Positions 3,983 through 24,761 of a DNA stretch of 64,000 nt are shown one piece after another. Positions within the stretch are counted from its first letter, which is position 1; the number at the start of each line of letters is the position of its first letter. Made by a program: the position numbers and the translations under genes. This stretch comes from a virus: IMG/VR virus record IMGVR_UViG_3300032030_000058, positions 9,733 to 73,732 of that record; one strand, 5' to 3'. The notes under the pieces were generated by a model. The model made no database searches. It worked only from the letters and a program-made list of their open reading frames with translations, and had not been told where the DNA came from.

Positions 3983-3984
3983 AC

Positions 3985-5409: not shown

Positions 5410-5880
5410 TTAGTCCTTATTATATCTTTCTTCTTCAACTTCAATTACTTCTTCATCTTTGCCAAAATTCATTTTGAATAACTTTTCGGCTTCTTCTTTT
5501 TCTTTTTTGATTAAATCAGGACAAATAATATTTAAAGAAAATTCCATCATAGAATCTTTTTCTTCTGTATAATTTGCAGCACGATATCTTCTAAAAATAT
5601 CTTGTTCTAAAGAACAATGTCTAAAATCCCAATTATTAGAAATAGTAGCAAAATAATCTGCTTGTGCCATTAATTCTAAATCTTTAGCAAGAAATTCTAA
5701 ATTATCTTCAAAACCATCTTCACCTTTATCAAAATCTGGCAAATCGTTAAAATCTTGATGCAAAATTTCAACATCTTTATCGAGAAGTCCTTTAACTGCT
5801 TCTTCAATCTTTTCTAATGATTTTTCAATATCATCTTTTGAACGACCTTTTAATGGAATACTAACAAAAACTTTTTTCAT
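5410..5880 (-). CDS. hypothetical protein with scaffold-like C-terminal EEAEKLFKMNFG motif
   Basis: 156 aa; its C-terminal region matches the C-termini of the two scaffold-like proteins. Confidence 0.5.
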   Translation of the reverse strand: MKKVFVSIPLKGRSKDDIEKSLEKIEEAVKGLLDKDVEILHQDFNDLPDFDKGEDGFEDNLEFLAKDLELMAQADYFATISNNWDFRHCSLEQDIFRRYRAANYTEEKDSMMEFSLNIICPDLIKKEKEEAEKLFKMNFGKDEEVIEVEEERYNKD

Positions 5881-7050: not shown

Positions 7051-7227
7051 TTACATTTTTTCATATTTTGGGCATGGTTTACTTTCGTAGTAAACTTCTT
7101 TTGGTTTTAGATCGAATTTTGAACAATAAGTCGCCAAAAAATTAACTAATCCATATTTACATGTCAAACATGGAATAGTTGATTTATCTGGTAATTGAAT
7201 TGTTAATTCTTCATTTTCATCAATCAT
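7051..7227 (-). CDS. small Cys-rich (zinc-ribbon-like) protein
   Basis: Start at ATG 7225-7227 preceded by AAGGAG; CxxC...CxxxC-like spacing (CLTC...CSK...CPKY). Confidence 0.45.
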   Translation of the reverse strand: MIDENEELTIQLPDKSTIPCLTCKYGLVNFLATYCSKFDLKPKEVYYESKPCPKYEKM

Positions 7228-10152: not shown

Positions 10153-10155
10153 CTC

Positions 10156-11058
10156 CTACATTAAAGATTCAAAAATTTCTGGATTGCTGGTCATGATTTC
10201 TTCTAATTCATCATCAGTAACTAAATCTGCATCATCACCAAACATTTTTTTAGCATTAGCCTTAGCAATTTCTGCTTGTTTTTCATTGAATTTGCCAGTT
10301 TTACCCCATGGTTTGCTTTGTTCCACTTTGACTTCTTCTTTGACTTCTTCTTGAACAGGAGCAGCTTGTTTCTTAGACTCAATAACTTTTTCAAGTTTCT
10401 TCTTCGCTTCACCTAAAGTTTCAATGCCACCATGTTTAGCACTGATAACATTTTGTTGTTGTTTGCTATCGTGTGCTTTTTCAATAGCGGCTTTTTCTGC
10501 TTGTGATTTAGCACCGGACTTGGTTTGCCAGTTTTCGGATTCGCCCTTGAATTCGCCTAATTTTGAGTCGTATTCCTTGGCCATATCCCAAACTGTTTTA
10601 GCACTGACCTTGGTAGATAAGCCTTCAGTGATAACCTTACCACCTTTTGTATACCATTTGTCTTTGTATTTGTCCCAATACGCACCAGATTTTGAACCGA
10701 ATTGTTGTTCGACATCTTTAATATAAACAACTCCATCTTCGTTTCCGCCAGTTAATGTTGGAGGAACAGTTTTGCCTCTGCTTGGGCCATATTTTGGATC
10801 AATGGATTGACCATTGACGGATTTATATGTGAATCGGCCTCCACGGTCACGGGGCTGAGAAGATTCTGGATTTTCTGCTTGTCTAATTTTGCCGTTTTCA
10901 CGAGTTGTTCTTGTATTAGAATCACCTTTTTTAAAAGGATGACCACCACCAGTAGATTCTTTATACTCGCCAAAACCTGTATTAAGACCTTCAGTTTCTT
11001 CCATTTTTTTAACGATATGCTTTTTAGCATCTTTACTTGGTTTATATTTTTTTGCCAT
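10156..11058 (-). CDS. basic low-complexity protein, possible internal virion/DNA-associated protein
   Basis: 300 aa, Lys/Gly-rich, RDRGGRFTYK motif near N-terminus, AKKMFG near C-terminus. Confidence 0.5.
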   Translation of the reverse strand: MAKKYKPSKDAKKHIVKKMEETEGLNTGFGEYKESTGGGHPFKKGDSNTRTTRENGKIRQAENPESSQPRDRGGRFTYKSVNGQSIDPKYGPSRGKTVPPTLTGGNEDGVVYIKDVEQQFGSKSGAYWDKYKDKWYTKGGKVITEGLSTKVSAKTVWDMAKEYDSKLGEFKGESENWQTKSGAKSQAEKAAIEKAHDSKQQQNVISAKHGGIETLGEAKKKLEKVIESKKQAAPVQEEVKEEVKVEQSKPWGKTGKFNEKQAEIAKANAKKMFGDDADLVTDDELEEIMTSNPEIFESLM

Positions 11059-12291: not shown

Positions 12292-13602
12292 CTATGCTGC
12301 TGGAGTGGTGAATGCTGCAGTTGAGATAACTGTAACTTTACCATTGTGAGCACCGAAGAGTTTGTAACCAGTTGAAGCAGTTAAGATACCGCTTAAATCT
12401 TGGTATGGAAGCACTTCGATTGCAGCTCCTGGAACACTGTCACCAACTGCTGGAATGCTTGCAGAAGCAATAGCGTAAAGTTTTGTGACTAATAATCCAG
12501 GTCTTAATGGACTAATCCATGTTCCAGTGATCATGTTCATGCTTGCGTCATAGGAGAAGTTGAGTGTTGGTTCAACAGCTGCGACGTCAGAAACGTGAGC
12601 ATAAACACCAATTCTCTTATTATCTAAGACGAATAAATCGTGATAGATACGAACGTTCACTTTGTAACCATCGAAATCTTGGACAACGCCAGGACCGAAT
12701 GTCTTAACGTGTTCATATTTAACGACGTGAGCAACTTTGGATGGATCGCAGACGATAAAGTCGATTTGTTTATTGCCTGTATCCCATGTGTAACCACCGT
12801 TACCAGAGTTGAGTAATTTAATCATAGTTCTGAAACGTGAATTTGGAACAGTGATTAATTTTCTACCTTCGTATTCTTCGATTTTGAAACTAATGTTACC
12901 TTTGAATTCAGAAGCATCGATAGTTCTGATTAATTCATTAGTATTTCTTAATTTGTTTCTGAAAGATGTAGAACAGAAGATAACTTGTCTTTCTGCTGGA
13001 ACTTCAGCGTTATCTAAAGTTTCGAAAGCAAGATTTAAGTGATAAATAGGACCATTTAATGTGTATCCTAATTGACCAGCAACTGGATCAGCGATTGCTG
13101 TGCTGTTAACTGTGCCAGCGTATTCTGCTAATTTTGAGAACACATAAGCATCAACTTCAGGAACAACGTTAACTCTGTTGGTTTCTTTTAAAGCCATAGC
13201 GACTGCTAAACCATCAGTTTCTTCATCGTCCATTAATTCGATTCTTAATTGAATAGCACGATCAACTCTGAGTGTGAACTCTTCCCACACAACAGCGATA
13301 TCGCCTTCTGGATAACCGTAACCTTCGCCTGCTGCATAAGGTGTAGCGGAACCGGCTGCGTAATCACCAGAAACTGGGACATTAGCACGGCCATAGTCTT
13401 TTAAACCAGCACCCATGAATTTTGCGACTTTAACGGTCTTTGTGCCTGTGAATTTTAAGAAGTCTTTTTCACCATCTAAGATAGAGGAACGAGCTTCTGC
13501 TACATATACTTCATCCCAGGCTTTTGTAGCGTATTTTTGAATAAGAGCAATAGCATTACCTGCCATAATATTTTTTCCTTCCTCCGATTTAACGGAACTC
13601 AT
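12292..13602 (-). CDS. major capsid protein (HK97-fold, phi29-like with C-terminal Ig-like domain)
   Basis: 436 aa; sits directly downstream of two acidic scaffold-like genes, has its own strong terminator, and has a Thr/Ser/Val-rich C-terminal ~100 aa that looks like a BIG2/Ig-like extension. Confidence 0.6.
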   Translation of the reverse strand: MSSVKSEEGKNIMAGNAIALIQKYATKAWDEVYVAEARSSILDGEKDFLKFTGTKTVKVAKFMGAGLKDYGRANVPVSGDYAAGSATPYAAGEGYGYPEGDIAVVWEEFTLRVDRAIQLRIELMDDEETDGLAVAMALKETNRVNVVPEVDAYVFSKLAEYAGTVNSTAIADPVAGQLGYTLNGPIYHLNLAFETLDNAEVPAERQVIFCSTSFRNKLRNTNELIRTIDASEFKGNISFKIEEYEGRKLITVPNSRFRTMIKLLNSGNGGYTWDTGNKQIDFIVCDPSKVAHVVKYEHVKTFGPGVVQDFDGYKVNVRIYHDLFVLDNKRIGVYAHVSDVAAVEPTLNFSYDASMNMITGTWISPLRPGLLVTKLYAIASASIPAVGDSVPGAAIEVLPYQDLSGILTASTGYKLFGAHNGKVTVISTAAFTTPAA

Positions 13603-13660
13603 TATGGAAATATGCTATGTTTCTTTTTTGTGGCTTATCAAGTTTAACTTATAATATATA

Positions 13661-14059
13661 TTATAACTTAAACAGTTTTTTTGCTTCTTCCCATTCTTCT
13701 TCGTCGTCGTCACCGTTTTCGGATTCTCCTTCCTCAGTGACTTCTTCTTCATCAGAATCGGATTTAGCATCTTCAAGTTTGTTTTCGAATTCTTCTTTAG
13801 ATTCGCCAGGACCAATTTCTTTAGCGGCTTCAGCTTCTTCAGCGGTTACGCCTTCAGCACCAGCACCTTCTGGACCTGCATCTTTTTCGAAGTCTTCGTC
13901 AAGTTCTAACCCGATAGCGCTGCATAATGTGCCTAAATCTTCTTTAGACATTTTACCTTCACGGAAGAGAGGCCATAAAATACCATCTGCGATATCTTCT
14001 GGGGTTAAACCTGCATCTTGAAGTTTTTGCATCATTTCTTGGATTTCTTCATTATTCAT
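13661..14059 (-). CDS. acidic scaffold-like protein
   Basis: 132 aa, highly acidic, C-terminus EEWEEAKKLFKL. Confidence 0.5.
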   Translation of the reverse strand: MNNEEIQEMMQKLQDAGLTPEDIADGILWPLFREGKMSKEDLGTLCSAIGLELDEDFEKDAGPEGAGAEGVTAEEAEAAKEIGPGESKEEFENKLEDAKSDSDEEEVTEEGESENGDDDEEEWEEAKKLFKL

Positions 14060-14077
14060 GTGTGATTTACTCCTTAA

Positions 14078-14839
14078 TTAATGAAACTTCAACTTAAATA
14101 ATTTTTCTGCTTCCTCTTCTTCACTCATTTGAGGCGCAGGTTTTTGCTCATTACCGAGCGCTTTAATACGTGTCACAGGAGCTGGGGCTGGGGCTGGGGA
14201 AGCAGCTTCCGCTTCTTTCTCAGCATTAGCTTCGCCTTTCCATTCAGGATGGGTTTCTAATTCGGAGTTAATATTATCTAATGTAACTTCAAGGCCTTTT
14301 CCTTTAAGAATTAATTTGACATCCTCGTAACGATCCGCATCAACACCGGATTGCATAAGAGCGATAGTTTCCGACATATCAGTAAGTTTTTTGTCTGTGT
14401 CTGATTTTTCTTGTTCCCAAGACGCTTTATCAGCATCATACATTTCTTTCTGTGTGTCGTATCTTTGTGCATTAGCAACTAAAGCATCAAGTTCTTCTTC
14501 ATTTTTGACACCATAACGGCCATAAATGTAGTTAAACGTTTTCTCTCTAGTTTTAACACGAGTATCACCAACTAACTTATCCACATCATCCTGAGTGAAA
14601 GTTTTAATGGATGTGTCGATAGCACCGTTTTCCTCGACTAATTCTGTTTCTGCTGGTTGGGACACACCATTAGCTGCATCTTCTTCAGTATAAACAGCGC
14701 CAGCTTCGGCTTCATTTTCCTCTGCGGAAGTGGCAGCAGGATCGGATGTTTCAGTCATTTCTGGTGATTTGGAAACAACTTCTTCATCTGTTTTTTCTTC
14801 TTCGCCTTCCAAAATTGGTTTTTTTTCTAAATCTTCCAT
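14078..14839 (-). CDS. scaffolding protein (acidic, coiled)
   Basis: 253 aa, Glu-rich, C-terminus EEEEAEKLFKLKFH, immediately upstream of the capsid gene. Confidence 0.55.
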   Translation of the reverse strand: MEDLEKKPILEGEEEKTDEEVVSKSPEMTETSDPAATSAEENEAEAGAVYTEEDAANGVSQPAETELVEENGAIDTSIKTFTQDDVDKLVGDTRVKTREKTFNYIYGRYGVKNEEELDALVANAQRYDTQKEMYDADKASWEQEKSDTDKKLTDMSETIALMQSGVDADRYEDVKLILKGKGLEVTLDNINSELETHPEWKGEANAEKEAEAASPAPAPAPVTRIKALGNEQKPAPQMSEEEEAEKLFKLKFH

Positions 14840-15104: not shown

Positions 15105-15283
15105 GTTCGAGAGGTTGCAGCCTCTTAGTTATAAAGGAGGATGTTCATTATATGTCCGAAATGAAAACCTACAGCTTTAGTATACAGCATCGATTCGTTA
15201 CCGTGCAAGAAAATTCCATCACCAGACAAGTTGGATTGCCCATAGAGCTTTTGAAAAAAATCGCACTATACTAAAAATAATTG

Positions 15284-15312
15284 TTGACAACATATATTAA
15301 TGGATATATAAT
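15284..15312 (+). promoter_or_regulatory. early sigma-A-type promoter P1 (TTGACA-17-TATAAT)
   Basis: -35 15284-15289, -10 15307-15312, AT-rich UP element aaaataattg. Confidence 0.7.
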
Positions 15313-15343
15313 TTAGGTAGTTAAAAACAAAGGAGCAAAAAAT

Positions 15344-15727
15344 ATGACACTAAATGAACTCTTAAAAAAACTTAGCACCATTAAAAAATATCGCTGGTTC
15401 CATGTGGTTTACACTAGCACTATCAATGGTTACAAAAAAACCACTACAAGCATTGTTAGGTTTGCTGACTATAAAAAGGCTGATGGCACCATGAACGAGC
15501 CTAAAAAGACCAATGTAAGCGAGTATATCATGCATTGTGAAAATACCGGCAATACCAATTTACAAGTATTCGTTACCAAATGCAAAAACCATAAGCCACA
15601 TAGTGTTTATGAGTATATGGGCAAAGAGATTAGTAAAGAGGAATATTATGAGGGTTCTCACAAAAAGCCATCTTCACCATCTCAATGTTTCTATCTCACC
15701 ATTGACAACATTGTAGCAATTTACTAA
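15344..15727 (+). CDS. early hypothetical protein
   Basis: Promoter 15284-15312, AAGGAG RBS, 127 aa. Confidence 0.6.
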   Translation: MTLNELLKKLSTIKKYRWFHVVYTSTINGYKKTTTSIVRFADYKKADGTMNEPKKTNVSEYIMHCENTGNTNLQVFVTKCKNHKPHSVYEYMGKEISKEEYYEGSHKKPSSPSQCFYLTIDNIVAIY

Positions 15728-15740
15728 GGGGGTTATAAAA

Positions 15741-15914
15741 ATGTTCAAAGTTGGAGATACCATTAAAATTATCTACATGGAAGGAGAGCCACAATATAGT
15801 GGCAAAATAGGCACCATTACTCACATTGACGATATTGGTCAATTACATGGGACTTGGGGTGGTTGTGCACTAATTCCAAATGTGGACGAGTTCCAAAAAA
15901 TTGAGAGCCGATAA
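15741..15914 (+). CDS. small early protein (57 aa)
   Basis: AAGGGGG RBS 6 nt upstream of ATG; followed by terminator 15904-15930. Confidence 0.5.
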   Translation: MFKVGDTIKIIYMEGEPQYSGKIGTITHIDDIGQLHGTWGGCALIPNVDEFQKIESR

Positions 15915-15930
15915 CATCGGTTCTTTTTTT
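15904..15930 (+). terminator. intrinsic terminator
   Basis: CCGAT-aac-ATCGG hairpin plus T8. Confidence 0.6.
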
Positions 15931-15978
15931 TAGCATCAATCGACCGTGCAAGAAGGAGATGGCGGCGGATGTCGATGG

Positions 15979-15996
15979 TTCCTAAAATCTTAGGAA
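15979..15996. promoter_or_regulatory. palindromic operator TTCCTAAAATCTTAGGAA upstream of P2
   Basis: Near-perfect 18 bp inverted repeat ~20 bp upstream of the -35. Confidence 0.5.
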
Positions 15997-16016
15997 AAAT
16001 TTTCTATAAATAATTG

Positions 16017-16045
16017 TTGACAATATATATACAATAATATATAAT
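16017..16045 (+). promoter_or_regulatory. early promoter P2 (TTGACA-17-TATAAT)
   Basis: -35 16017-16022, -10 16040-16045. Confidence 0.7.
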
Positions 16046-16072
16046 GGTAGTGTAGATAAGGAGATAAAAACT

Positions 16073-16198
16073 ATGTTCGCTAAAACCTATGTAATTATGC
16101 CATTGGAGTGGGATTATGATAATGACCACCATAATATGATAAGATACCTATCTAATCAAGGTATCATTGTTCCTAGTGATATTGTTCGCTTGGATTAA
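16073..16198 (+). CDS. small early ORF (42 aa), possibly the 5' part of a frameshifted gene
   Basis: Promoter 16017-16045, AAGGAG RBS; a further 41-codon ORF follows in the +1 frame (16213-16338) without an RBS before the terminator. Confidence 0.35.
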   Translation: MFAKTYVIMPLEWDYDNDHHNMIRYLSNQGIIVPSDIVRLD

Positions 16199-16212
16199 TT
16201 GTGTGGCTCTAT

Positions 16213-16338
16213 GGAGTGTTCAAAGGGCTATGCGGTTGGCACCATTACAAAACTTAAAAAGGAATATCCATATGTCAAGTTTGGACTATTCGAGGGAGCA
16301 ACTTGGGGTTCACTGACCATTGTTCAAGAGTTCTAATT
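16213..16338 (+). pseudogene. possible downstream fragment of a frameshifted early gene
   Basis: ORF MECSKGYAVG... in a different frame from 16073-16198, no SD, same transcription unit. Confidence 0.25.
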
Positions 16339-16339
16339 G

Positions 16340-16367
16340 AAGTATCCTGATGCGGGATACTTTTTTT
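16340..16367 (+). terminator. intrinsic terminator
   Basis: GTATCC-tgatgc-GGGATAC plus T7. Confidence 0.65.
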
Positions 16368-16452
16368 ATGCGATGCTGGACCGTGCTAAAAAATCCGATG
16401 GCGGATCCAGGATGAAGCTCACCATCAATGTTTGTTAACTTATAATTTTGTG

Positions 16453-16481
16453 TTGACAATATATATAAAATGATATATACT
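16453..16481 (+). promoter_or_regulatory. early promoter P3 (TTGACA-17-TATACT)
   Basis: -35 16453-16458, -10 16476-16481. Confidence 0.65.
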
Positions 16482-16505
16482 ATAATTAGAAAGAAGGAAC
16501 AAATC

Positions 16506-16931
16506 ATGAGTGAAAAACAAAAGCAAGAAGCCATTAAAAGAATGAGACTTCTACAAATTATGAATAGCGTCATTACCGACTTTAAAAATAATGGTCGTAT
16601 TTATTATAGTGAAAGGCAGAATTCAATGTTTCCAGCCACACTGTATTGGTTAGACAATAAACCTGAATGGGTTGCAATGGTCAAGGACTTTGAAAAAAGA
16701 AATCATGCCCTTGTCTATCATGCTCAATTAACTCACACACAAGTGGGAGACTTGCTATCGTTATTATATGTTTCTAATGACGAGTCAAGCTGGGAAGAGG
16801 ACCGCGAATGGATAGTCAATGAAGATGGCTTGATGTATTCAATGGTCATTAATCTTGACGACGACACATTCAGCGACATGGGGACCATTCAAGTTCGACC
16901 AGCGATGGGAGGTGTAGTAAGAACGGCGTAA
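16506..16931 (+). CDS. early hypothetical protein
   Basis: Start at ATG 16506 preceded by GAAGGAAC RBS; promoter 16453-16481. Confidence 0.6.
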   Translation: MSEKQKQEAIKRMRLLQIMNSVITDFKNNGRIYYSERQNSMFPATLYWLDNKPEWVAMVKDFEKRNHALVYHAQLTHTQVGDLLSLLYVSNDESSWEEDREWIVNEDGLMYSMVINLDDDTFSDMGTIQVRPAMGGVVRTA

Positions 16932-17042
16932 CAGCCGCTCTTTTTTTTAGCTTCAATTACCGTGCTAATACAGTGGATCCAGATTCAGATGCGGATCGTC
17001 TTCTGGCGTTCGAATCTTTTTAAAAAAATTTAATTTTAGGTA

Positions 17043-17071
17043 TTGACAATATATATAAAATAATATATACT
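17043..17071 (+). promoter_or_regulatory. early promoter P4 (drives ncRNA candidate)
   Basis: -35 17043-17048, -10 TATACT 17066-17071; 27/29 identical to P3. Confidence 0.65.
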
Positions 17072-17077
17072 ATATAT

Positions 17078-17289
17078 GTAAGATGAATAAACAAGTGTTG
17101 GGAAGATGATGTTCTCTTACAGCGAATAACCAAAGACTGCTATAGTGTCATAATAGGCGTAAGGTGGACGAAACCCTGGTTGGTTGGGCCGACGACTCGT
17201 ATGGTGTTTGCTACGTCACAACGTTAAATAGAACGTAGAACATAACTTAATAGTTTGGGAGAAGGTGGTTCGAAACACCTTCTTTTTTT
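17078..17289 (+). ncRNA. candidate ~210 nt non-coding RNA (promoter to terminator with no ORF and no RBS)
   Basis: Canonical early promoter 17043-17071 followed by no SD or ORF longer than 8 codons, internal hairpins (GTAAGA/TCTTAC, CTACGT/ACGTAG), intrinsic terminator 17259-17289. Confidence 0.45.
17259..17289 (+). terminator. intrinsic terminator ending the ncRNA candidate
   Basis: GAAGGTG-gttcgaaa-CACCTTC plus T7. Confidence 0.65.
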
Positions 17290-17393
17290 GCACCTGATAA
17301 CGCAACTGGATCTAAATCGCCGCATCAGATGAACCGTGCTAAACAGCATCATCTGGAATTCGGATGGAGCTGGGAAATTCTTCAAAAATAATG

Positions 17394-17422
17394 CTTGACG
17401 ATATATATACAATAATATATAA
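17394..17422 (+). promoter_or_regulatory. early promoter P5 (TTGACG-17-TATAAT)
   Basis: -35 17394-17399, -10 17417-17422. Confidence 0.65.
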
Positions 17423-17451
17423 TATAAGTAGTTAATAGGAGGAATACTAAT

Positions 17452-17868
17452 ATGACCATTAGACAAACATTATCAAACTACGTTATAAGTGAAATGACCA
17501 ACGAGGAACTATTCACTGAACTATCAAATTCTTTACCATTCAAGAGCAAAAGAGAGCATACTAAATGGTTATCGTTAAAGGGCACACAACAATGGTTGAC
17601 CATGACCGAAAAAGTTCTTAAACGAGCCAATACGCAAGTTTACCATGTCAAATTGGAACGTGGTTCACGTATTGAAATCAATGGTACAGGTTTCTATTCA
17701 TTTGAGGACTATTACACAAGTATCAAACTTGAACCAAATGAGAGCCATCGTTACATCAAGGAACAAACCATTGACCATATTCGTCAACAAATTGCTACTA
17801 GTATCCTTAAAAATGTCAAGAGATGGAAAGATATTGGTATTGATATGGCTGACCTAAGAGTGTTGTAA
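17452..17868 (+). CDS. early hypothetical protein
   Basis: Promoter 17394-17422, AGGAGG RBS, 138 aa. Confidence 0.6.
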   Translation: MTIRQTLSNYVISEMTNEELFTELSNSLPFKSKREHTKWLSLKGTQQWLTMTEKVLKRANTQVYHVKLERGSRIEINGTGFYSFEDYYTSIKLEPNESHRYIKEQTIDHIRQQIATSILKNVKRWKDIGIDMADLRVL

Positions 17869-17883
17869 ATCAAACCATAAACA

Positions 17884-17920
17884 TAAAAAAGAGAAGGGTT
17901 ATTCGCCCTTCTTTTCTTTT
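17884..17920. terminator. bidirectional terminator
   Basis: AGAAGGG-ttattcg-CCCTTCT flanked by an A-run and a T-run; the same hairpin family recurs at 60397-60430. Confidence 0.6.
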
Positions 17921-18141
17921 TCCATCGCAGCTTTGGCCAGATCCTTGATGTATTGAGCCGTGCTGTATTTGGATCTCAGGAAGTCATAGATCATCATCTG
18001 TTCTGGATCATCTTTCTTAAACATGATGGTCATTGAACAGTAGTTACTCTTGTTATACTTCTTGATGTAATCTCTCTTCCTCTTGTAATATTCTTCTGTT
18101 GGCATAAATTCTCCTCCTTCTCCATCAGCATCTGGATCCAC
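17899..18141 (-). CDS. hypothetical protein (minus-strand gene inside the early cluster)
   Basis: Own minus-strand promoter 18161-18189 (TTGACC-17-TACAAT), GGAGGAG RBS, bidirectional terminator 17884-17920. Confidence 0.55.
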   Translation of the reverse strand: MDPDADGEGGEFMPTEEYYKRKRDYIKKYNKSNYCSMTIMFKKDDPEQMMIYDFLRSKYSTAQYIKDLAKAAMEKEKKGE

Positions 18142-18160
18142 TATCCGTGCTGTGTATATA

Positions 18161-18189
18161 ATTGTATATTAGGATTCCAGATTGGTCAA
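18161..18189 (-). promoter_or_regulatory. minus-strand promoter for 17899-18141 (TTGACC-17-TACAAT)
   Basis: -35 18189-18184, -10 18166-18161 read on the minus strand. Confidence 0.55.
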
Positions 18190-18196
18190 GAAAAAA

Positions 18197-18225
18197 TTTA
18201 CAAGTATATATAAAATGGTTATAAT
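18197..18225 (+). promoter_or_regulatory. promoter P6 (TTTACA-17-TATAAT), drives sRNA candidate
   Basis: -35 18197-18202, -10 18220-18225. Confidence 0.6.
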
Positions 18226-18231
18226 AATGAT

Positions 18232-18338
18232 GAAGGTGAATTAATTAAGCCCCCAATTAAATAACGCAATTCATTAAACTTTTTCATTTCAAACTAAAAA
18301 TCCATCACCTTCAGCAGTCCCTCGTGGACTGTTTTTTT
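18232..18338 (+). ncRNA. candidate ~105 nt small RNA
   Basis: Promoter TTTACA-17-TATAAT at 18197-18225, no ORF longer than 5 codons, closing helix GAAGGTGA/TCACCTTC, terminator 18313-18338. Confidence 0.4.
18313..18338 (+). terminator. intrinsic terminator
   Basis: CAGTCC-ctcgt-GGACTG plus T8. Confidence 0.65.
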
Positions 18339-18413
18339 TGATTCAGCTAACCGTGCTATACGGCGACGCCAGATGAATCAAAATTGAGCTGGAAAAAAAT
18401 TTAATTTACCCCC

Positions 18414-18442
18414 TTGCAAATATATATACTTTGATATATAAT
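18414..18442 (+). promoter_or_regulatory. early promoter P7 (TTGCAA-17-TATAAT)
   Basis: -35 18414-18419, -10 18437-18442. Confidence 0.65.
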
Positions 18443-18470
18443 ATAGATAGTTAAAAGGGAGATAAAAAAC

Positions 18471-18761
18471 ATGACAACTACTTCAAAACAAACTAAGGCT
18501 TGGAAAGAACTTTTCTCAGCCATATTCGAAGAAAATGGATACTTCGAAAACTTACGTCAATTCGCAAAGGACCATGGTTATAGCAATCAAGACATGACTG
18601 AAATGCTTTATGAAAGCTACATGCACAATTGCCCTGAAGGTATGGGACCTTATTATTTCATGGACAGTATGGAAGAGCATTACGAGGACATGAAAGACAG
18701 CGTGGAAAATATTTACGATATGGTGGACTGGCTATGGGACCATCAAGCGTGGAAGGAGTAA
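18471..18761 (+). CDS. early acidic hypothetical protein
   Basis: Promoter 18414-18442, AAGGGAG RBS. Confidence 0.6.
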   Translation: MTTTSKQTKAWKELFSAIFEENGYFENLRQFAKDHGYSNQDMTEMLYESYMHNCPEGMGPYYFMDSMEEHYEDMKDSVENIYDMVDWLWDHQAWKE

Positions 18762-18765
18762 AACA

Positions 18766-19059
18766 ATGGAAAACAAATACTATGAGCTTGGTTGGAGGCT
18801 TAATTCAACACAAAGGAAAGCCCTAAAAGACCTTGGCTACCATGTGTATGCAACTCGTTCTTGGGACGAAGGTTGTGGCTCTACATTGGAACATCGTGTC
18901 CTTGTTAACCACGAAACAGACGTCATTACAAACTTCCCAGCATTGGACGACAACAATCCTGAAGACATGGCTAACGACTTCTACGAGCGCATGGAAGAAT
19001 TCAATGCTACCAGCGACCTAGAAATCACCCCTGAAATGAGAACCATCTTGGAAATGTAA
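18766..19059 (+). CDS. early acidic hypothetical protein
   Basis: Coupled 4 nt after upstream gene, GGAGTAA RBS. Confidence 0.55.
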   Translation: MENKYYELGWRLNSTQRKALKDLGYHVYATRSWDEGCGSTLEHRVLVNHETDVITNFPALDDNNPEDMANDFYERMEEFNATSDLEITPEMRTILEM

Positions 19060-19065
19060 AGGAGG

Positions 19066-19098
19066 GAGAGGCTGCCATCAGCAGCTTCTTTTTTTTAT
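19066..19098 (+). terminator. intrinsic terminator
   Basis: GCTGC-catca-GCAGC plus T9. Confidence 0.65.
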
Positions 19099-19248
19099 GC
19101 CTCCTTCACTGCACGGTTAGAAGCTGGATTCGCCTGAATTCTGGAGATTCATCTGGAAGCTCACCTGGGGATTCATCTGGGCGATTACCGTGCTCGATCG
19201 ATGTCCACAGAGCTTCTACCAGAATCCAAAAAATAATTAAAATAATGG

Positions 19249-19277
19249 TTGCAAGTATATATACATTAATATATAAT
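19249..19277 (+). promoter_or_regulatory. early promoter P8 (TTGCAA-17-TATAAT)
   Basis: -35 19249-19254, -10 19272-19277. Confidence 0.65.
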
Positions 19278-19306
19278 ATAGGTAGTTAATAGGAGGAACA
19301 TATCCC

Positions 19307-20038
19307 ATGGAAAAAACAACAAACATATTGCTTGGTCTAGCAATTAAACACAATGGTAATTGGAGTAGCATTTACCATGACTTACAACAAAAGGACTATG
19401 AAGGTGCAGAGGCACTCGCAGAGGCTTATACAGGCTCTTTTATCACTATCCTTGACGAAGAATATCCTGACTACTTAAAACAAGCCCACAAGCCACCATT
19501 TGTGCTATTTTATAATGGCGACATTTCTTTATTAAAAAAGGAACACACACGAGTATGCGTATCAACAAGTAGAGCAACTGACGAAGACTCACTTTCTTTC
19601 TTGCACTCTTTAATTAACAATGACTACAACGACATTGACTATGTTATAAGCGAAACCACACACAACATTGAAATAGACAGGAAGAAACACCACGCCATTT
19701 GCGTTGCAGGTTGTGGTCTTGAACTCGTCAATTGCACCAACTACGACTTAATAATCAGTGAATATCCTAGTGGCACACCAAAAGCCTCGGAAGGTATGCT
19801 TGGAGCATATCGTATTATGGCAGGTATTTCTTCAAAAATAATGGTCGGTAAAGTTAAAAGACTAAGCGGAACGAATGCCCTTATCTCCTTCGGTTTATAT
19901 CAAAACAAGGACATATTAGTTATGCCTGTTAAACCAAAGGAAAACATTGAGGAAGACCTTGGCAATAATAAACTTATCTACGACGGAGCAATACCACTAG
20001 TAGACAAGGAACAGTTAGCGTTCTATCTAGGTCATTAA
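19307..20038 (+). CDS. DprA/Smf-like (Rossmann/SLOG-type) protein, divergent
   Basis: HHAICVAGCGLEL...LIISEYPSGTP...GAYRIMAGISSKIMVGKVKRLSGTNALIS matches the DprA core (TIAVLGSGLD...LLISEYPPGTP...RNRIIAGLS...SGSLITA); the canonical SGLARGID motif is replaced by SETTHNIEID. Confidence 0.55.
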   Translation: MEKTTNILLGLAIKHNGNWSSIYHDLQQKDYEGAEALAEAYTGSFITILDEEYPDYLKQAHKPPFVLFYNGDISLLKKEHTRVCVSTSRATDEDSLSFLHSLINNDYNDIDYVISETTHNIEIDRKKHHAICVAGCGLELVNCTNYDLIISEYPSGTPKASEGMLGAYRIMAGISSKIMVGKVKRLSGTNALISFGLYQNKDILVMPVKPKENIEEDLGNNKLIYDGAIPLVDKEQLAFYLGH

Positions 20039-20042
20039 AAAA

Positions 20043-20070
20043 GTGTCGGAAATTTATCCGACATTTTTTT
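20043..20070 (+). terminator. intrinsic terminator
   Basis: GTCGGAAATTTATCCGAC plus T7. Confidence 0.65.
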
Positions 20071-20114
20071 CTGGGGCGGTCACCGTGCTATGCGGCAGAT
20101 GATCCGGATCCAGC

Positions 20115-20132
20115 TTCCTAAAATTTTAGGAA
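20115..20132. promoter_or_regulatory. palindromic operator TTCCTAAAATTTTAGGAA upstream of P9
   Basis: Perfect 18 bp palindrome 24 bp upstream of the -35. Confidence 0.5.
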
Positions 20133-20156
20133 ATTAAATTCACCTAAAAATAATTG

Positions 20157-20185
20157 TTGACATCAATTTGTATATAATGTAATAT
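20157..20185 (+). promoter_or_regulatory. early promoter P9 (TTGACA-17-TAATAT)
   Basis: -35 20157-20162, -10 20180-20185. Confidence 0.65.
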
Positions 20186-20212
20186 ATATAACGTAAACAG
20201 GAGGTATACCAA

Positions 20213-20431
20213 ATGAAAACAACCATCTCATTCTACAACTCAACTACTGCCTTATGGGTAAACTTTGACGACAAATTTATGGCTCTCAAAGACCAGCACT
20301 CAAAAGGTGAAATGAGTGAAGTTTACGATTTCGGTGTTGGCTTAATCGAAGTTAAGGCAACTGATGGTGAAATCGAAGCTACTCGTAAAGTGCTTGAAAC
20401 ACAAGGGTTCACATTCATTTATATCGAATAA
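20213..20431 (+). CDS. early hypothetical protein
   Basis: Promoter 20157-20185, AGGAGG RBS, 72 aa. Confidence 0.6.
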   Translation: MKTTISFYNSTTALWVNFDDKFMALKDQHSKGEMSEVYDFGVGLIEVKATDGEIEATRKVLETQGFTFIYIE

Positions 20432-20523
20432 GAAGGATGTCCATCAGGGCATTCTTTTTTTATGTCTCAATCACCGTGCTATATTGCCACGATCCGAACA
20501 TCTAAAAAACTATAAATAATTAT

Positions 20524-20552
20524 TGACTTCTATATATAAAAGGATATATATT
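20524..20552 (+). promoter_or_regulatory. early promoter P10 (TTGACT-17-TATATT)
   Basis: -35 20524-20529, -10 20547-20552; first of a tandem pair. Confidence 0.6.
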
Positions 20553-20624
20553 ATAGACAGGTAGTTGAAGAGAGCACCTCAAAAAATCAACTACAAAAAA
20601 AATTAAAAAAAATAAAAAAACCTA

Positions 20625-20653
20625 TTGACACATTTTAAAAAATAATGTAATAT
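20625..20653 (+). promoter_or_regulatory. early promoter P11 (TTGACA-17-TAATAT)
   Basis: -35 20625-20630, -10 20648-20653. Confidence 0.65.
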
Positions 20654-20741
20654 ATAGGTGTAAGGTAAAGAACGAGGAACGTTCACGAGGGCCTTACGAA
20701 CAAACTTAAAACGTGGAAGAACCACTATAGGAGAATTAAAA

Positions 20742-21023
20742 ATGTTTGTAAAAATTACTCGAATTAACAACCAAAATCACGAAAAAGAATTAGTAGTCAA
20801 CACTGACGAAATCGTCTTTCTAAGCGAATGCGAAGACCACATCAACTATGACAAGCCTATCGCATACGAAGAAACCACTGACGAAGACACAGGTATCATT
20901 ACCAAAGTCCCAAGTGAGTGGGAAATCGAAAAACGTTATGTTATCGGTTTCAAAAACGGAAAACACCCACAAATCGTAGACAAAACCAATTACGAAAAAT
21001 TAGCCGAAATCTTACTCAAATAA
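20742..21023 (+). CDS. early hypothetical protein
   Basis: Tandem promoters 20524-20552 and 20625-20653, ~80 nt structured leader, TAGGAGAA RBS. Confidence 0.6.
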   Translation: MFVKITRINNQNHEKELVVNTDEIVFLSECEDHINYDKPIAYEETTDEDTGIITKVPSEWEIEKRYVIGFKNGKHPQIVDKTNYEKLAEILLK

Positions 21024-21046
21024 GAAAGTAGGGTAAAATAGCCACT

Positions 21047-21082
21047 GGAAGAGAGCCCACCTCGAACTCTCTTCTTTTTTTG
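21047..21082 (+). terminator. intrinsic terminator
   Basis: GAAGAGAG-cccacctcgaa-CTCTCTTC plus T7. Confidence 0.65.
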
Positions 21083-21145
21083 TCTTCGCGACGGCGGATG
21101 GAAGGCGGATCAACGTGGGCATCCTATGGCACGGTCATATGATTC

Positions 21146-21163
21146 TTCCTAAATTTTTAGGAA
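21146..21163. promoter_or_regulatory. palindromic operator TTCCTAAATTTTTAGGAA upstream of P12
   Basis: Third copy of the same palindrome, 15 bp upstream of the -35. Confidence 0.5.
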
Positions 21164-21178
21164 ACTTGCAAATTTGTG

Positions 21179-21207
21179 TTGACAATATATATCAAATAAT
21201 ATACAAT
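21179..21207 (+). promoter_or_regulatory. early promoter P12 (TTGACA-17-TACAAT)
   Basis: -35 21179-21184, -10 21202-21207. Confidence 0.65.
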
Positions 21208-21231
21208 GGTAGCATAAGGAGGGCATATCCC

Positions 21232-21537
21232 ATGAAAAGCAAATACGTAGAGTATAGAGATTTCTATATTACATCATTCGTTGACTACGATAAGGAATTG
21301 TTCGTTATGGTCAACATCAGTGGCGACACACTAGTGGAAAACTTCACTAGCAACTTCTTCTCTAAAGAAGACTTAGTTATTGACTATTATAAGTTAATCT
21401 CCAAATGTGCCACAGGAGGGGACGAAGACGATATTATTCCATACACACGCAAGTATATGGCGCATATCGTGAGAGTTTCACAAGAGGAACTTAATATGGA
21501 CTATATTAATTTCTCTCTAAAGGGGGTCCAATTATGA
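21232..21537 (+). CDS. early hypothetical protein
   Basis: Start at ATG 21232 after TAAGGAGGG; promoter 21179-21207. Confidence 0.6.
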   Translation: MKSKYVEYRDFYITSFVDYDKELFVMVNISGDTLVENFTSNFFSKEDLVIDYYKLISKCATGGDEDDIIPYTRKYMAHIVRVSQEELNMDYINFSLKGVQL

Positions 21538-21755
21538 GACGCTACTACATAATTACCGACCTTGTCCACAGTCAAGACTATCTTACGTGGGCGTATGACC
21601 ATAGTGACATCCTTGGTGCAGCAATATGCTTTGCTGAAAAACAAGGCGTCACCATCAATGACCTGCGTATGTATGCCTGCTCCACCAAAAAAGAGTGGGA
21701 CGCATACGGAACAGCTCACTTCTCTCGTATCAAAGCGTGGCAATGCACCAAATAA
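21534..21755 (+). CDS. early hypothetical protein
   Basis: ATGA overlap with upstream gene; followed by two terminators. Confidence 0.55.
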   Translation: MRRYYIITDLVHSQDYLTWAYDHSDILGAAICFAEKQGVTINDLRMYACSTKKEWDAYGTAHFSRIKAWQCTK

Positions 21756-21989
21756 GGCATCAAACGGCTCGATTCAGCCGTTTTTTGTTGTTTTCCGAGT
21801 AATTCCTCGTTTTCATACACAAACACATCTTAAACGGCGGATTCGTAACATCCGCTTTTTTGATGCTTCAGGGACGTTCACCGTGCTAACCAGATGAATC
21901 GAGTTAGTACCAGAATCATCCCACATCTAAGATGTGAATTACTGTCCATCAAAAAATTAATTTTTTTTGCAAATTATTCATTTTTATAT

Positions 21990-22185
21990 TAACTATAAAA
22001 TAGAATAATTATGCAAAGGGACCATTTTGGTGAATCGAGTTAGCGTTTTGCTATTATTATCTTACATATATATATACATACACATATTGGGAATTATAGG
22101 AAAATTCTAACTCAACTAATCAAATTTAACATTAGTAGATAGACTACTAAAAAAATCAACGTTCTATAAATAATTATTGACTTGG
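21990..22185 (+). repeat. ~190 bp direct repeat, copy A
   Basis: ~80% identical over ~110 bp to 28250-28445 (tttggtgaatcgagttagcg...atatatatacatacacatat...) and shares the identical ctataaataattattgac promoter-like end. Confidence 0.6.
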
Positions 22186-22347
22186 CACTTTTTGGCGTTT
22201 TTTGAGCTTTTTGCTTTCCTTTCTTCTTCTAAGAATTCTTCTTCTTCTCCTTGCGATGCTTCTGGATCAGGACCTAGCACGGATAGCTTCATGTGCATGT
22301 CCAGGACCGGGTTAGCATCAGGGTGAAAATTTGTTACAAAAATATAT

Positions 22348-22375
22348 TGACAACCATTTTCAAATAATATATACT
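22348..22375 (+). promoter_or_regulatory. promoter P13 (TTGACA-16-TATACT), drives sRNA candidate
   Basis: -35 22348-22353, -10 22370-22375. Confidence 0.6.
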
Positions 22376-22381
22376 GTAGTT

Positions 22382-22487
22382 GCAATGATGGAGATATGTA
22401 TTCTCCTATAACTTAAAAACCCATAGTCATGTTAATTCCTTTCATTGCACTAATCTGTCAGTTTACATAGCCTGGCAGATTTTTTTA
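22382..22487 (+). ncRNA. candidate ~105 nt small RNA
   Basis: Promoter TTGACA-16-TATACT at 22348-22375, only 8- and 12-codon ORFs, internal hairpin GGAGA/TCTCC, terminator ATCTGTCAG/CTGGCAGAT plus T7 at 22453-22487. Confidence 0.4.
22453..22487 (+). terminator. intrinsic terminator ending the sRNA candidate
   Basis: ATCTGTCAG-tttacatagc-CTGGCAGAT plus T7. Confidence 0.6.
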
Positions 22488-22599
22488 TGCCCAGCTCAGG
22501 ATCTGGACAGGATCTGAATCCGATTTCGCATATTAGCACGGTAGGTTAATTATAGAATCGATGCCGCTTCAGAAAATGAAAAAATACTATAAAAATATA

Positions 22600-22628
22600 T
22601 TGACATATACATGTATATAATGTAATAT
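22600..22628 (+). promoter_or_regulatory. early promoter P14 (TTGACA-17-TAATAT)
   Basis: -35 22600-22605, -10 22623-22628. Confidence 0.65.
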
Positions 22629-22653
22629 ATAATTGTCAATAGGAGGTCACAAT

Positions 22654-23268
22654 ATGGCTATAAAAATCTCAACTACAAACTCAAAACTAGGGTTCATGAT
22701 TCCTAGTATATCACTACCACCGCAACACTCTTGTCGTCCTGACGCGCCTTGTGCGAAGGGTTGCTATGGTAAAAAGGGCAATTTCTTATTTAGTAACGTT
22801 CAACAGTCTCATATGGTCAACTTTGAAGAATATCAAAAAAATCCTAACGGGTACTTCAAACAAATTATTGAATACTTAAATTGCGGACTCATATCACATA
22901 AATTCTTTCGTTGGCATACTGTCGGCGACATCGTAGACTACAATTATTTTCTCGGAGTCGTTAGTGTGGCGCGTAAATGTAAAGACACTAAGTTCTTACT
23001 ATTCACGAAGAAGTTCGACATCATCAACGACTACGTGGGCGCCGGTAACACTATTCCTAGAAATTTATCAATTGTGTTTTCCGCGTGGCATAAGGGTTTT
23101 AAAGTCGACAATCCTTATGACTTCCCTGTCGCGTATGTGTTCTTTAAGAAGACAGAACTCAATCCTGACATCCCAGCTATGGCTATCCCTTGTTCTGGTC
23201 ACTGTCCATCTTGTTTAGCCTGTTGGAGTCTTAAAAAAGGTCAATCAGTGTTCTTCAATCAACACTAA
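22654..23268 (+). CDS. Cys-rich early protein (N-terminal CxxxxxCxxxC and C-terminal CSGHCPSCLAC clusters)
   Basis: Start at ATG 22654 after AGGAGG; promoter 22600-22628; 204 aa. Confidence 0.55.
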   Translation: MAIKISTTNSKLGFMIPSISLPPQHSCRPDAPCAKGCYGKKGNFLFSNVQQSHMVNFEEYQKNPNGYFKQIIEYLNCGLISHKFFRWHTVGDIVDYNYFLGVVSVARKCKDTKFLLFTKKFDIINDYVGAGNTIPRNLSIVFSAWHKGFKVDNPYDFPVAYVFFKKTELNPDIPAMAIPCSGHCPSCLACWSLKKGQSVFFNQH

Positions 23269-23328
23269 TTAAACCGCCGAAGTAGGGACGCGGTATATAA
23301 GACAGCCTTGGGATAGCGGACCAACGCT

Positions 23329-23359
23329 AGAAGGGAATCGATCCCTTCTTTTTTTTATG
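23329..23359 (+). terminator. intrinsic terminator
   Basis: GAAGGGA-atcga-TCCCTTC plus T8. Confidence 0.65.
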
Positions 23360-23496
23360 CGGATTTATCTAGCACGGTAATGGATCCACGGCGGCGATTC
23401 TCTGGATCCAGACAGCTTCAGATCAAGATGAATAACCGTGCCGGAAGCTGTACGATCAGAATCCATCCTGGATCAGAAAAAAACTGTAAATTTATA

Positions 23497-23526
23497 TTGA
23501 CATATATATATCCAATAATATACAAT
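23497..23526 (+). promoter_or_regulatory. early promoter P15 (TTGACA-18-TACAAT)
   Basis: -35 23497-23502, -10 23521-23526. Confidence 0.6.
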
Positions 23527-23552
23527 GAGAGTGTCAATAGGAGGATATACAA

Positions 23553-23924
23553 ATGACAAACTACAACACTTTAACACCTTACAAACATCATCAAATCGAA
23601 GACTGGGGCGGCGTTATCAGTGACGACTTCAAATCATTCGCTCGCAAGTGGCAAAACTTCTTAAAACGCATGTGTGCAAATAACGGTTGGGAGCTATGCA
23701 ACTTCAATCGCGGACACTACTACTGTTCCTGGTTCATCAAAAACGGTGACAAATACGTTTACTGCTCATTCGGAGACGTCAGGCACTTCTCCAGAGACTG
23801 GTATAAACTCATTCTCCATCGCGTCGCAAAAAATGAACGCGACTATACCGGTGGAAGTAACTGGTACACCGAACTCGAAAATCTCGAAGGAGCAATTACC
23901 AGACGGTTCCAGACTGGATATTAG
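23553..23924 (+). CDS. early hypothetical protein (Cys/Trp-rich)
   Basis: Promoter 23497-23526, AGGAGG RBS, bidirectional terminator 23934-23968. Confidence 0.6.
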   Translation: MTNYNTLTPYKHHQIEDWGGVISDDFKSFARKWQNFLKRMCANNGWELCNFNRGHYYCSWFIKNGDKYVYCSFGDVRHFSRDWYKLILHRVAKNERDYTGGSNWYTELENLEGAITRRFQTGY

Positions 23925-23933
23925 TTCAAAAAA

Positions 23934-23968
23934 TAGAAAAGAGCTGATCATCTCAGCCCTTTTTTATT
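23934..23968. terminator. bidirectional terminator between convergent genes
   Basis: GCTGA-tcatc-TCAGC with an A-run upstream and a T-run downstream. Confidence 0.55.
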
Positions 23969-24761
23969 TCTTAGAATTAATAGCACGGTTACGCCAGCTC
24001 TGCATCAACTTCCTGGTTCTTCTCATATCCGTCTTCATCTGCAATGGTAAACTCGCATCACCAAAACTCTTCTTCACCACCTGCATCAATTTTAAACGGT
24101 CCCTGTAGAAGCGATACTGTTGAACCTCATACGAAATATATTCCTGAGCCGAAACACGCCTTAAACGGCCGATTTCAGCGAAAGAAACAGGAATCAATCT
24201 GTGGCGACAGTTCTTACGTGTGCATAGGTATGGCGGCTGAAGCATCACTTCGTCCACACTTAGTAACCCGGCGTTAAATATATATGCCTTCTCTTCATCT
24301 GAATACTCAGCGTTCTTTTTATAATAAATTCTGCCCTGATACGCAGCGTGGTCTTTAGCTGGATCTGTGAACTCCGTGCAATAGTAGAACTTTGAATCCC
24401 CCTGAAGAACATCCACGAGCTCTTCATGCTTCTTACGGTACTCGATATTATCCACAACATCGTTCTTGATCTTCTCCAGCATCGGGGTATCATCTCTAAG
24501 CACGGCATATATCGATGCGGCGCGATCATCTGCATCAACTTTCCGGGCTGCACCAGCTACGGTATGTTTGTAGAAATTCATGGCAAATAACCAGAGCGAG
24601 TGCCGCTCATTATCGTTCAGATGCTGAACATTCTGGATGATCTTCTTCACCTGACGCATCACTGATCTTTTATCAGCACGGTTAAGTACGCTAGATGTGA
24701 TCACCGCCACGATCTTTAGCTCTGCATTATATATTAAATTCTTATAATACCCTGTGTTCAT
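23964..24761 (-). CDS. hypothetical protein, possible MuF-like minor head protein (follows the portal)
   Basis: 265 aa, GC-richer codon usage shared with the portal gene; the position after the portal parallels SPP1 gp6-gp7. Confidence 0.35.
   Translation of the reverse strand: MNTGYYKNLIYNAELKIVAVITSSVLNRADKRSVMRQVKKIIQNVQHLNDNERHSLWLFAMNFYKHTVAGAARKVDADDRAASIYAVLRDDTPMLEKIKNDVVDNIEYRKKHEELVDVLQGDSKFYYCTEFTDPAKDHAAYQGRIYYKKNAEYSDEEKAYIFNAGLLSVDEVMLQPPYLCTRKNCRHRLIPVSFAEIGRLRRVSAQEYISYEVQQYRFYRDRLKLMQVVKKSFGDASLPLQMKTDMRRTRKLMQSWRNRAINSKK

Follow-up and report, generated by a model that had tools for sequence, protein, structure and literature searches.

A phage-encoded DprA derivative that has lost its DNA-binding pocket and may act on host RecA

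In Streptococcus pneumoniae, DprA (SpDprA, structure 3UQZ) is the RecA loader of natural transformation and belongs to the competence regulon. Phages carry DprA homologues as well, and these are routinely annotated as recombination mediators. Here we analyse one such homologue. It is encoded in a predicted early block of a viral genome, on a stretch of 64,000 nucleotides that we call the window (positions 9,733 to 73,732 of IMG/VR record IMGVR_UViG_3300032030_000058). The window protein shares with SpDprA a SAM-like N-terminus and an extended Rossmann fold, without a C-terminal winged helix. It has lost the pocket in which DprA proteins bind single-stranded DNA (ssDNA). We tentatively propose that it acts on host RecA through protein contacts instead.

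Several described systems are close to this one. Phage DprA/Smf copies from jumbo phages and Enterococcus phages have been read as ssDNA binders or mediators (PMC7824862, PMC11210271). They are also members of the Pfam family PF02481, but they are placed with recombination genes. A DprA fold with a SAM domain has been repurposed in phage-host conflict in ShosA and PsyrA, and ShosA works via RecA binding (PMC12961424). Unlike the window protein, ShosA is encoded by the host beside a phosphoribosyltransferase (PRTase) toxin, keeps and needs its ssDNA-binding arginines and carries an additional helix at its C-terminus. No toxin gene adjoins the gene of the window protein, and the second of these arginines is missing from its product. 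PsiB of conjugative plasmids and AriS of a Listeria prophage, two of the few precedents for mobile elements that restrain RecA, provide a functional analogy only: a mobile element damps RecA or the SOS response on entry (PMC9043618). Neither is related to the window protein in sequence or fold, and their action on RecA is experimentally supported, whereas here we infer it. The AriS study of 2022 found no phage proteins acting on RecA in the literature (PMC9043618). We found no description in the literature of a phage-restricted DprA lineage with a degenerate pocket.

The window protein is a true DprA/Smf homologue along its whole length. It matches PF02481 (DNA_processg_A) with 74.8 bits (E=7e-21; gathering cut-off 29.6), covering profile positions 5–209 of 212. 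This was the sole match in a Pfam scan at E≤10, and no LOG/SLOG family appeared at that threshold. Searching the PDB with phmmer recovers SpDprA and the DprA-like antitoxin ShosA. From an alignment with 22 relatives, AlphaFold2 yields a model of very high confidence (predicted local distance difference test, pLDDT, 93.5; predicted template modelling score, pTM, 0.91) that is closest to solved DprA structures. Foldseek returns SpDprA with E=1e-17 and a template modelling (TM) score of 0.73, and the top 14 matches are all DprA or ShosA. The next fold class (LOG/MCP-type, E=6e-4) is more than eight orders of magnitude weaker. SpDprA is the best match in both sequence and structure, and the similarity is not confined to generic Rossmann features.

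These results bear out the original prediction, made from the letters and their open reading frames, of a divergent DprA/Smf-like protein with a degenerate signature. The peptides quoted there are all present: AICVAGCGLEL (amino acids, aa, 130–140), LIISEYPSGTP (148–158), YRIMAGIS (168–175) and SGTNALIS (187–194). The similarity had been placed in the C-terminal two thirds, where it is real, but homology spans the entire protein including the SAM-like N-terminal domain. A profile of the phage clade described below matches the canonical DprA profile with E=2.7e-76, and the match reaches through the N-terminal 40 residues. In a PDB search, this clade profile places SpDprA on top (7.7e-37), followed by ShosA (4e-26). 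The NCBIfam dprA equivalog TIGR00732 gives the window protein 59.3 bits, below its cut-off of 191.15. Thus the protein is a DprA member by descent, and functional equivalence is not certified.

Known phages offer little closer. All PHROG families matched by the window protein are of unknown function, and the viral structures of BFVD contain no close structural relative (best E about 1e-3). A megablast of the 6-kb neighbourhood against INPHARED gave zero matches, hence there is no named relative. With the window protein as query, tblastn gave only three phage matches, all distant.

The DNA pocket is lost. Two motifs form the signature of ssDNA-binding DprA domains: G-S/T/A-R (R52 in HpDprA) and F/L/Y-x-x-R-N/D (F140, R143, N144) (Wang et al. 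2014, PMC3950713). Both are degenerate in the window protein (Table 1), and the glycine missing from the first is invariant across 116 canonical relatives. The SGLAxGID loop is gone too. It was correctly predicted to be replaced by SETTHNIEID (aa 115–124), but the degeneration is wider than this single motif and includes both ssDNA motifs and two helices that flank the pocket. The loop region carries a basic run, R125-K126-K127-H128, that extends into H129. The deletion at the GxG loop removes the YPxxN element together with the next helix, which carries K175 in SpDprA.

Residues that were mapped experimentally tell the same story. In pneumococcal DprA, ssDNA binding was mapped to R115 and K119/K144/K175/K202/K225 (Lisboa et al. 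2014, PMC4066776). Only two of these six are retained, as R89 (R115) and K184 (K225). K119 has become E93, K202 has become S161, and K144 and K175 lie in missing segments. R208 and N209 of SpDprA are also lost. For comparison we modelled a canonical bacterial relative (P0022, pLDDT 96.2). Helices 123–133 and 152–164 of that model are absent from the window protein, which has a loop (residues 116–128) and a short turn instead, while the remaining secondary-structure elements follow in unchanged order. Sequence and model together suggest that ssDNA binding has been lost. Given the loss of the pocket, we propose that the window protein would no longer be an ssDNA-bound RecA loader.

The window protein is not an isolated oddity. 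Our searches recovered a family of short DprA proteins of about 230–275 aa. Its degenerate members lie on phage contigs in all ten contexts sampled, and eight of the ten (L001, L004, L006, L009, L016, L017, L098, L099) share the layout of the window, a plus-strand block of small genes adjoining a portal gene of about 580–605 aa. The syntenic position of the DprA-like gene is kept in phages down to 32–36% identity. Clade members with sampled context come from gut or rumen phages of Erysipelotrichales-type hosts. A conserved partner gene beside the DprA-like gene was sought across the related phages and none was found; the neighbours vary by lineage.

Members with canonical motifs are bacterial and chromosomal. 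The locus of P0022 reads rpoB-rpoC-dprA-topA-xerC, and the dprA-topA linkage is taken from this one locus. Among 185,579 species genomes searched, the nearest bacterial copies have at most 34% identity to the window protein. They come from Erysipelotrichaceae, Solobacterium, Eggerthia, Coprobacillus and metagenome-assembled genomes (MAGs) of gut or rumen 'Bacilli', and canonical motifs are present in 74 of the 80 bacterial copies. The short chromosomal DprA of Erysipelotrichales/'Bacilli' gut bacteria (such as P0022) is the nearest cellular relative, with 28–34% identity. It belongs to the same length class and has the same N-terminal signature (LAIKYxGDW / ITILDxxYP / PPFVLFYxGDISLL), but all canonical motifs are present in it, as are the two helices missing from the window protein. 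Judging from these sequences, the phage clade probably has its origin in the short DprA of bacteria of the Erysipelotrichales type. Two degenerate copies occur in bacterial genomes, on a contig of a Candidatus Colivivens equi MAG (L048) and in a Mycoplasma sp. MAG (L086). The former is possibly on a binned phage contig, and the latter possibly reflects reductive evolution of a host gene.

The clade is large. In a representative library of 1.84 billion proteins, 71 of 136 new top matches have lost at least two of three pocket motifs. After filtering at 70% identity, our sample contains 90 degenerate clusters (thus at least 90 in the clade) and 116 canonical clusters. In a neighbour-joining tree built without the motif columns, 34 degenerate sequences form one clade, and five very decayed sequences sit on a neighbouring branch. 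We do not claim repeated independent loss of the pocket, because such a tree cannot show it. A more decayed viral group (L012, L013 and L014 at about 10001–10777; L015 at 2300–2998) has no GSR, has VAK in place of SGT and in some members lacks the C-terminal G-A. Only the SAM-like/beta1-beta2 signature is left in this group, and its genes lie just upstream of clamp-loader-like and primase genes. At the other extreme, the 131-kb IMG/VR contig L011 (an uncultivated virus genome) encodes a fully canonical DprA with every motif intact (9995–10768), near a phage sigma factor gene. Hence intact and pocket-dead forms both circulate in phages.

Loss of the pocket is not decay of the gene. The window gene is under purifying selection: the ratio of nonsynonymous to synonymous substitution rates (dN/dS) is 0.27 in the comparison with a relative of 95% identity and about 0.18 in that with a relative of 76% identity. 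Extensive motif loss and deletions, and the further decay of the L012–L015 copies, would fit a functionless remnant of a captured host dprA. This explanation is scarcely credible for a gene with such dN/dS values, with many positions invariant across its clade, with an intact open reading frame that has its own promoter, ribosome-binding site (RBS) and terminator, with a very confident model of its product and with synteny kept over such distances. We reject the pseudogene reading, since the dN/dS values and the conservation across the clade exclude decay.

Selection has acted unevenly along the protein. Mean conservation over all positions is 0.51 in canonical and 0.41 in degenerate sequences. 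At pocket positions it falls from 0.93 to 0.37, a comparison with some circularity, as three of those motifs served to define the groups. However, the SGT-x-x-T motif, which lies outside the group definition, collapses in the degenerate group as well. Elsewhere conservation is similar: 0.63 canonical against 0.70 degenerate for the RecA-contact residues of Lisboa et al. (2014), 0.65 against 0.68 for the beta1-beta2 region (ITILDxxYP...PPFVLFYxG) and 0.42 against 0.41 for the SAM-like domain. In the latter, G17, W19, Y23 and K29 are conserved throughout the phage clade. This pattern shows that constraint was relaxed specifically at the DNA pocket and has persisted in the rest of the protein, the RecA-contact surface among it.

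The conventional reading of phage DprA copies (PMC7824862; PMC11210271) can be set against this pattern. A streamlined phage DprA could still be a recombination mediator, with a remodelled basic surface that binds ssDNA and loads host RecA onto phage ssDNA to the benefit of recombination-dependent replication or repair of the phage. We regard this main rival as unlikely. Pocket positions vary freely among the relatives, which is unexpected under selection for DNA binding, both published ssDNA motifs fail, four of the six mapped residues are gone and the two flanking helices are deleted. True, the protein belongs to the DprA family and retains RecA-face residues, and basic residues persist: R89 (the equivalent of R115/R52), R169 and K184, along with the R125-H129 loop and K182/K184/R185. 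The canonical copy on L011 also speaks for mediators in phages. But the window gene lies in the block of small early genes, away from the exonuclease, the ssDNA-binding protein (SSB) and primase genes, and its product is acidic (net charge -10, isoelectric point, pI, 5.3), although neither charge nor pI discriminates as an indicator of lost DNA binding (pI 5.0–5.8 in phage copies, 5.1–8.8 in canonical ones). For the clade, annotation as a mediator is probably wrong, because a large clade has lost the DNA pocket selectively under purifying selection.

What the protein has kept may point to RecA. We took the RecA-contact and dimer residues of SpDprA from Lisboa et al. (2014). The window protein keeps equivalents of M238, D243, I263, E265, G266 and A267 in addition to R115 and K225. 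Its RecA-contact equivalents are L197, D202, I203, D226, G227 and A228. In the sequence alignment, the EDE triad of SpDprA corresponds to S194/D202/D226, M238 to L197, and G266 and A267 to G227 and A228. Hence two of the three acidic residues of the triad and the G-A pair are retained. The C-terminal N-x-x-I/L-x-x-G-A helix, which carries the equivalents of SpDprA I263, E265, G266 and A267, is kept in 64 of 71 degenerate cluster representatives.

We therefore weigh the following scenario. The host sigma-70 RNA polymerase would transcribe the DprA-like gene early, from the gene's own promoter. The product, a presumed phage-adapted derivative of the short (SAM plus Rossmann) host DprA with its fold retained, would serve as a decoy or modulator by binding host RecA or, less probably, host DprA. 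RecA-dependent responses would be blunted, such as SOS, recombinational repair, RecA-dependent defence or prophage induction. Meanwhile the phage would depend on the exonuclease/SSB recombination genes that it carries itself. Among possible partners RecA is the likeliest, because no other functional surface is retained as well as the face that contacts RecA, because RecA is constitutively present at infection and because the phage owns recombination genes. That the protein is a DNA-pocket-dead DprA derivative acting through protein contacts, most likely on RecA, is our tentative preference, somewhat short of an even chance. Both the partner and the physiological effect are predicted from sequence. 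The suggestion that an early phage copy of DprA could subvert host recombination is compatible with our findings and corresponds to the reading that we prefer.

Several observations weigh against this preference. One acidic residue of the RecA triad is gone (E235 is S194), and L269 in the dimer zone of SpDprA is a proline in the window protein; dimerisation may be altered for this reason. The retained residues could be conserved for folding and not for RecA binding. R89 and R169 are still present, the R125-K126-K127-H128-H129 run is kept in the closest relatives, and this run plus K182/K184/R185 could form a remodelled nucleic-acid site. The circular part of the pocket comparison and the lack of discrimination by charge belong on the same side. 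Finally, early timing is predicted from promoters only.

If the proposal is true, the decoy would shut off SOS, recombinational repair, or defence and prophage induction that depend on RecA, and would do so at the outset of infection. Direct RecA antagonists that are encoded by phages and have a defined structural logic are few, and the decoy would then be one of them. The broader claim concerns the whole clade: a large, undescribed family of early phage proteins that arose from host DprA, discarded the pocket, kept the RecA face and serves as a RecA decoy. We consider this possible but on balance doubtful. The phage proteins documented to act on RecA are few. Should the retained contact surface for RecA be functional, the clade would represent a natural family of host-takeover factors aimed at RecA, and its proteins would also be potential probes of the DprA-RecA interface. 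DprA homology by itself is ordinary; the selective pattern of loss, the size of the clade and the RecA-decoy hypothesis merit follow-up.

Alternatively, the protein could mimic a DprA-like antitoxin (ShosA of ShosTA or PsyrA of PsyrTA) and replace the labile host antitoxin upon shut-off of host transcription. ShosTA is triggered when phage inhibition of the host RNA polymerase stops ShosA expression (PMC11961720, PMC12961424), which would give a rationale for a substitute made early by the phage. The PDB matches include ShosA structures, and the PADLOC profiles of ShosA and PsyrA match the window protein at 48.9, 29.1 and 27.3 bits. Yet the ShosA match (48.9 bits) is partial, in two stretches, and weaker than the DprA match, the clade profile matches SpDprA 11 orders of magnitude better, and the clade clusters with the chromosomal DprA of Erysipelotrichales. 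The antitoxin activity of ShosA needs ssDNA binding via R139 and R234, without direct binding of ShosT (PMC12961424). The equivalent of R139 is kept (R89), but that of R234 is A167, a position that varies across the clade. A simple decoy for ShosT would fail, because ShosA does not bind ShosT directly. Moreover, no PRTase or other toxin is found among the neighbours, where the only Pfam match is GP88, about 2.6 kb downstream. Together, this makes an antitoxin mimic quite improbable.

The last explanation is a nucleotide sponge or a nucleotide-processing protein of the SLOG/LOG type that removes a defence signal. DprA belongs to the SLOG superfamily, and the phage anti-Avs protein ORF83, annotated as Smf, is a predicted AMP binder (bioRxiv 10.1101/2025.06.06.658234). 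This analogy runs the wrong way: ORF83 resembles LOG proteins in structure and is devoid of the residues with which DprA dimerises and contacts RecA, whereas the window protein shows the reverse pattern. The suggested sequestration of a signalling nucleotide is not supported. The Pfam scan gave DprA alone, the nearest LOG/MCP-type structure is far behind 3UQZ (6e-4 against 1e-17), the glycine-rich loops of the pocket, in which a nucleotide would sit, are lost and unconstrained among relatives, and the two pocket helices are deleted. We consider a role in nucleotide binding very improbable.

The window stems from the genome of a large tailed phage with a G+C content of about 35%. Its genes specify a major head protein, a scaffold, a portal, a terminase, a primase-helicase, a fusion of polynucleotide kinase (PNK), phosphatase and RNA ligase, an ADP-ribosyltransferase and three tRNAs. 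The minus strand carries almost every gene, except for the block at about 15.3–24.1 kb that contains the DprA-like gene. This block is inserted between the scaffold/major head genes (12292–14839, minus strand) and the portal gene (24800–26572, minus strand). Its units have a near-consensus TTGACA-17-TATAAT promoter in front and a hairpin with a T-run behind. There are six strict sigma-70 consensus promoters in the 64 kb, and all six are on the plus strand within the block (15.3–22.4 kb). Strict promoters are likewise confined to the block in related phages.

The promoter of the DprA-like gene belongs to a family of repeated promoters whose AT-rich spacer is conserved. Orthologues of the gene in L004 and L006 have the same promoter element at -57. 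Early expression, which had been predicted from the outset, is reasonably expected, because a promoter, RBS and terminator of this kind are the typical signature of early genes read by the unmodified host polymerase, and the gene has all three in the sole strict-sigma-70 region of the window. The recombination genes of the phage lie in a distant replication module (exonuclease 53803–54642, SSB 52277–52813).

Table 1. Features of the DprA-like gene, its product and its surroundings in the window.
Feature	Position	Strand	Details
Coding sequence of the 243-aa DprA-derived protein	19307–20038	+	ATG start, stop included
N-terminal SAM-like helical domain	19307–19426	+	aa 1–40; helices 3–14, 19–28, 34–40
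DprA Rossmann-fold domain	19427–19996	+	aa 41–230, Pfam PF02481
ssDNA motif 1 remnant T87-S88-R89	19565–19573	+	Gly gone; Arg (SpDprA R115 / HpDprA R52) retained
Degenerate SGLAxGID loop S115-E-T-T-H-N-I-E122 and loop to aa 128	19649–19690	+	Loop to aa 128 replaces the following alpha-helix
Shortened GxG-loop region	19715–19747	+	aa 137–147; about 12 residues deleted
ssDNA motif 2 remnant M164-L-G-A167-Y168	19796–19810	+	Key Arg and Asn gone; following R169 retained
Conserved C-terminal part	19865–19996	+	aa 187–230; equivalents of SpDprA RecA-contact residues and N220-N221-x-L-I-Y-D-G-A-x-P230 helix
Sigma-70-type promoter of the DprA-like gene	19249–19277	+	-35 TTGCAA 19249–19254, 17-nucleotide spacer, -10 TATAAT 19272–19277
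RBS AGGAGG	19291–19296	+	10 nucleotides upstream of ATG
Intrinsic-terminator-like hairpin	20044–20070	+	TGTCGGA / loop AATTTA / TCCGACA, then T7; terminator scan lists the opposite strand
Block of small plus-strand genes	15268–24108	+	Promoter and terminator per unit; presumed early module, host RNA polymerase

Copies of the early promoter lie within 15268–23547, at about 15284, 16017, 16453, 17043, 17395, 18414, 19249, 21179, 22347 and 23497. The 17-nucleotide spacer is conserved and partly palindromic, TTGACAATATATATA(C/A)AAT(A/G)ATATATAAT, and the same spacer occurs in L004 and L009. This suggests that the spacer is an operator for a shut-off regulator. A second motif, ACCGTGCTA (searched as CACCGTGCTA with at most one mismatch), has ten copies against 1.3 expected, all within the early block: seven on the plus strand (16379, 16958, 17332, 18349, 20081, 20472, 21879) and three on the minus strand (22534, 23370, 23981). 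They occupy spacers of higher G+C content that separate a terminator from the promoter that follows, and may be regulator-binding or RNA-processing sites. The DprA-like gene is preceded by a near-copy, TTACCGTGCTCG, at about 19188. A tandem direct repeat of 24 nucleotides (CTGGAGATTCATCTGGAAGCTCAC / CTGGGGATTCATCTGGGCGATTAC) also lies in the spacer that precedes the DprA-like promoter, at 19141–19188.

The GP88-family gene mentioned above (PF17338, 82.7 bits; 22633–23268, plus strand) belongs to the same block and is kept in those of the closest relatives (L004, L016). The block of L099 encodes two small proteins that resemble the C-terminal domain of the RNA polymerase alpha subunit (PF03118) and sigma-70 region 4 (PF04545), at 3718–4221 and 5420–5863. 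They are candidate transcription-takeover factors, which suggests a role of the block in host takeover.

Outside the block, the recombination cluster at 52277–54642 (minus strand) comprises the exonuclease (phrog_1227), two proteins of about 161 aa of unknown function and the SSB. One of the two may be an unrecognised single-strand annealing protein. The largest uncharacterised gene of the window is an open reading frame of 1133 aa (60580–63981, minus strand), which has no PHROG match at E≤1e-5. Among the structural genes, a 536-aa protein (7220–8833, minus strand) has a C-terminal ADP-ribosyltransferase domain of the Bxa-like/exoenzyme type and could be a host-modifying toxin delivered with the virion. 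The PNK/phosphatase/RNA-ligase fusion (28986–31196, minus strand; 735 aa, phrog_8238, E=1e-199) is a single-chain tRNA/RNA repair enzyme, and thus implies pressure from host defences of the anticodon-nuclease type.

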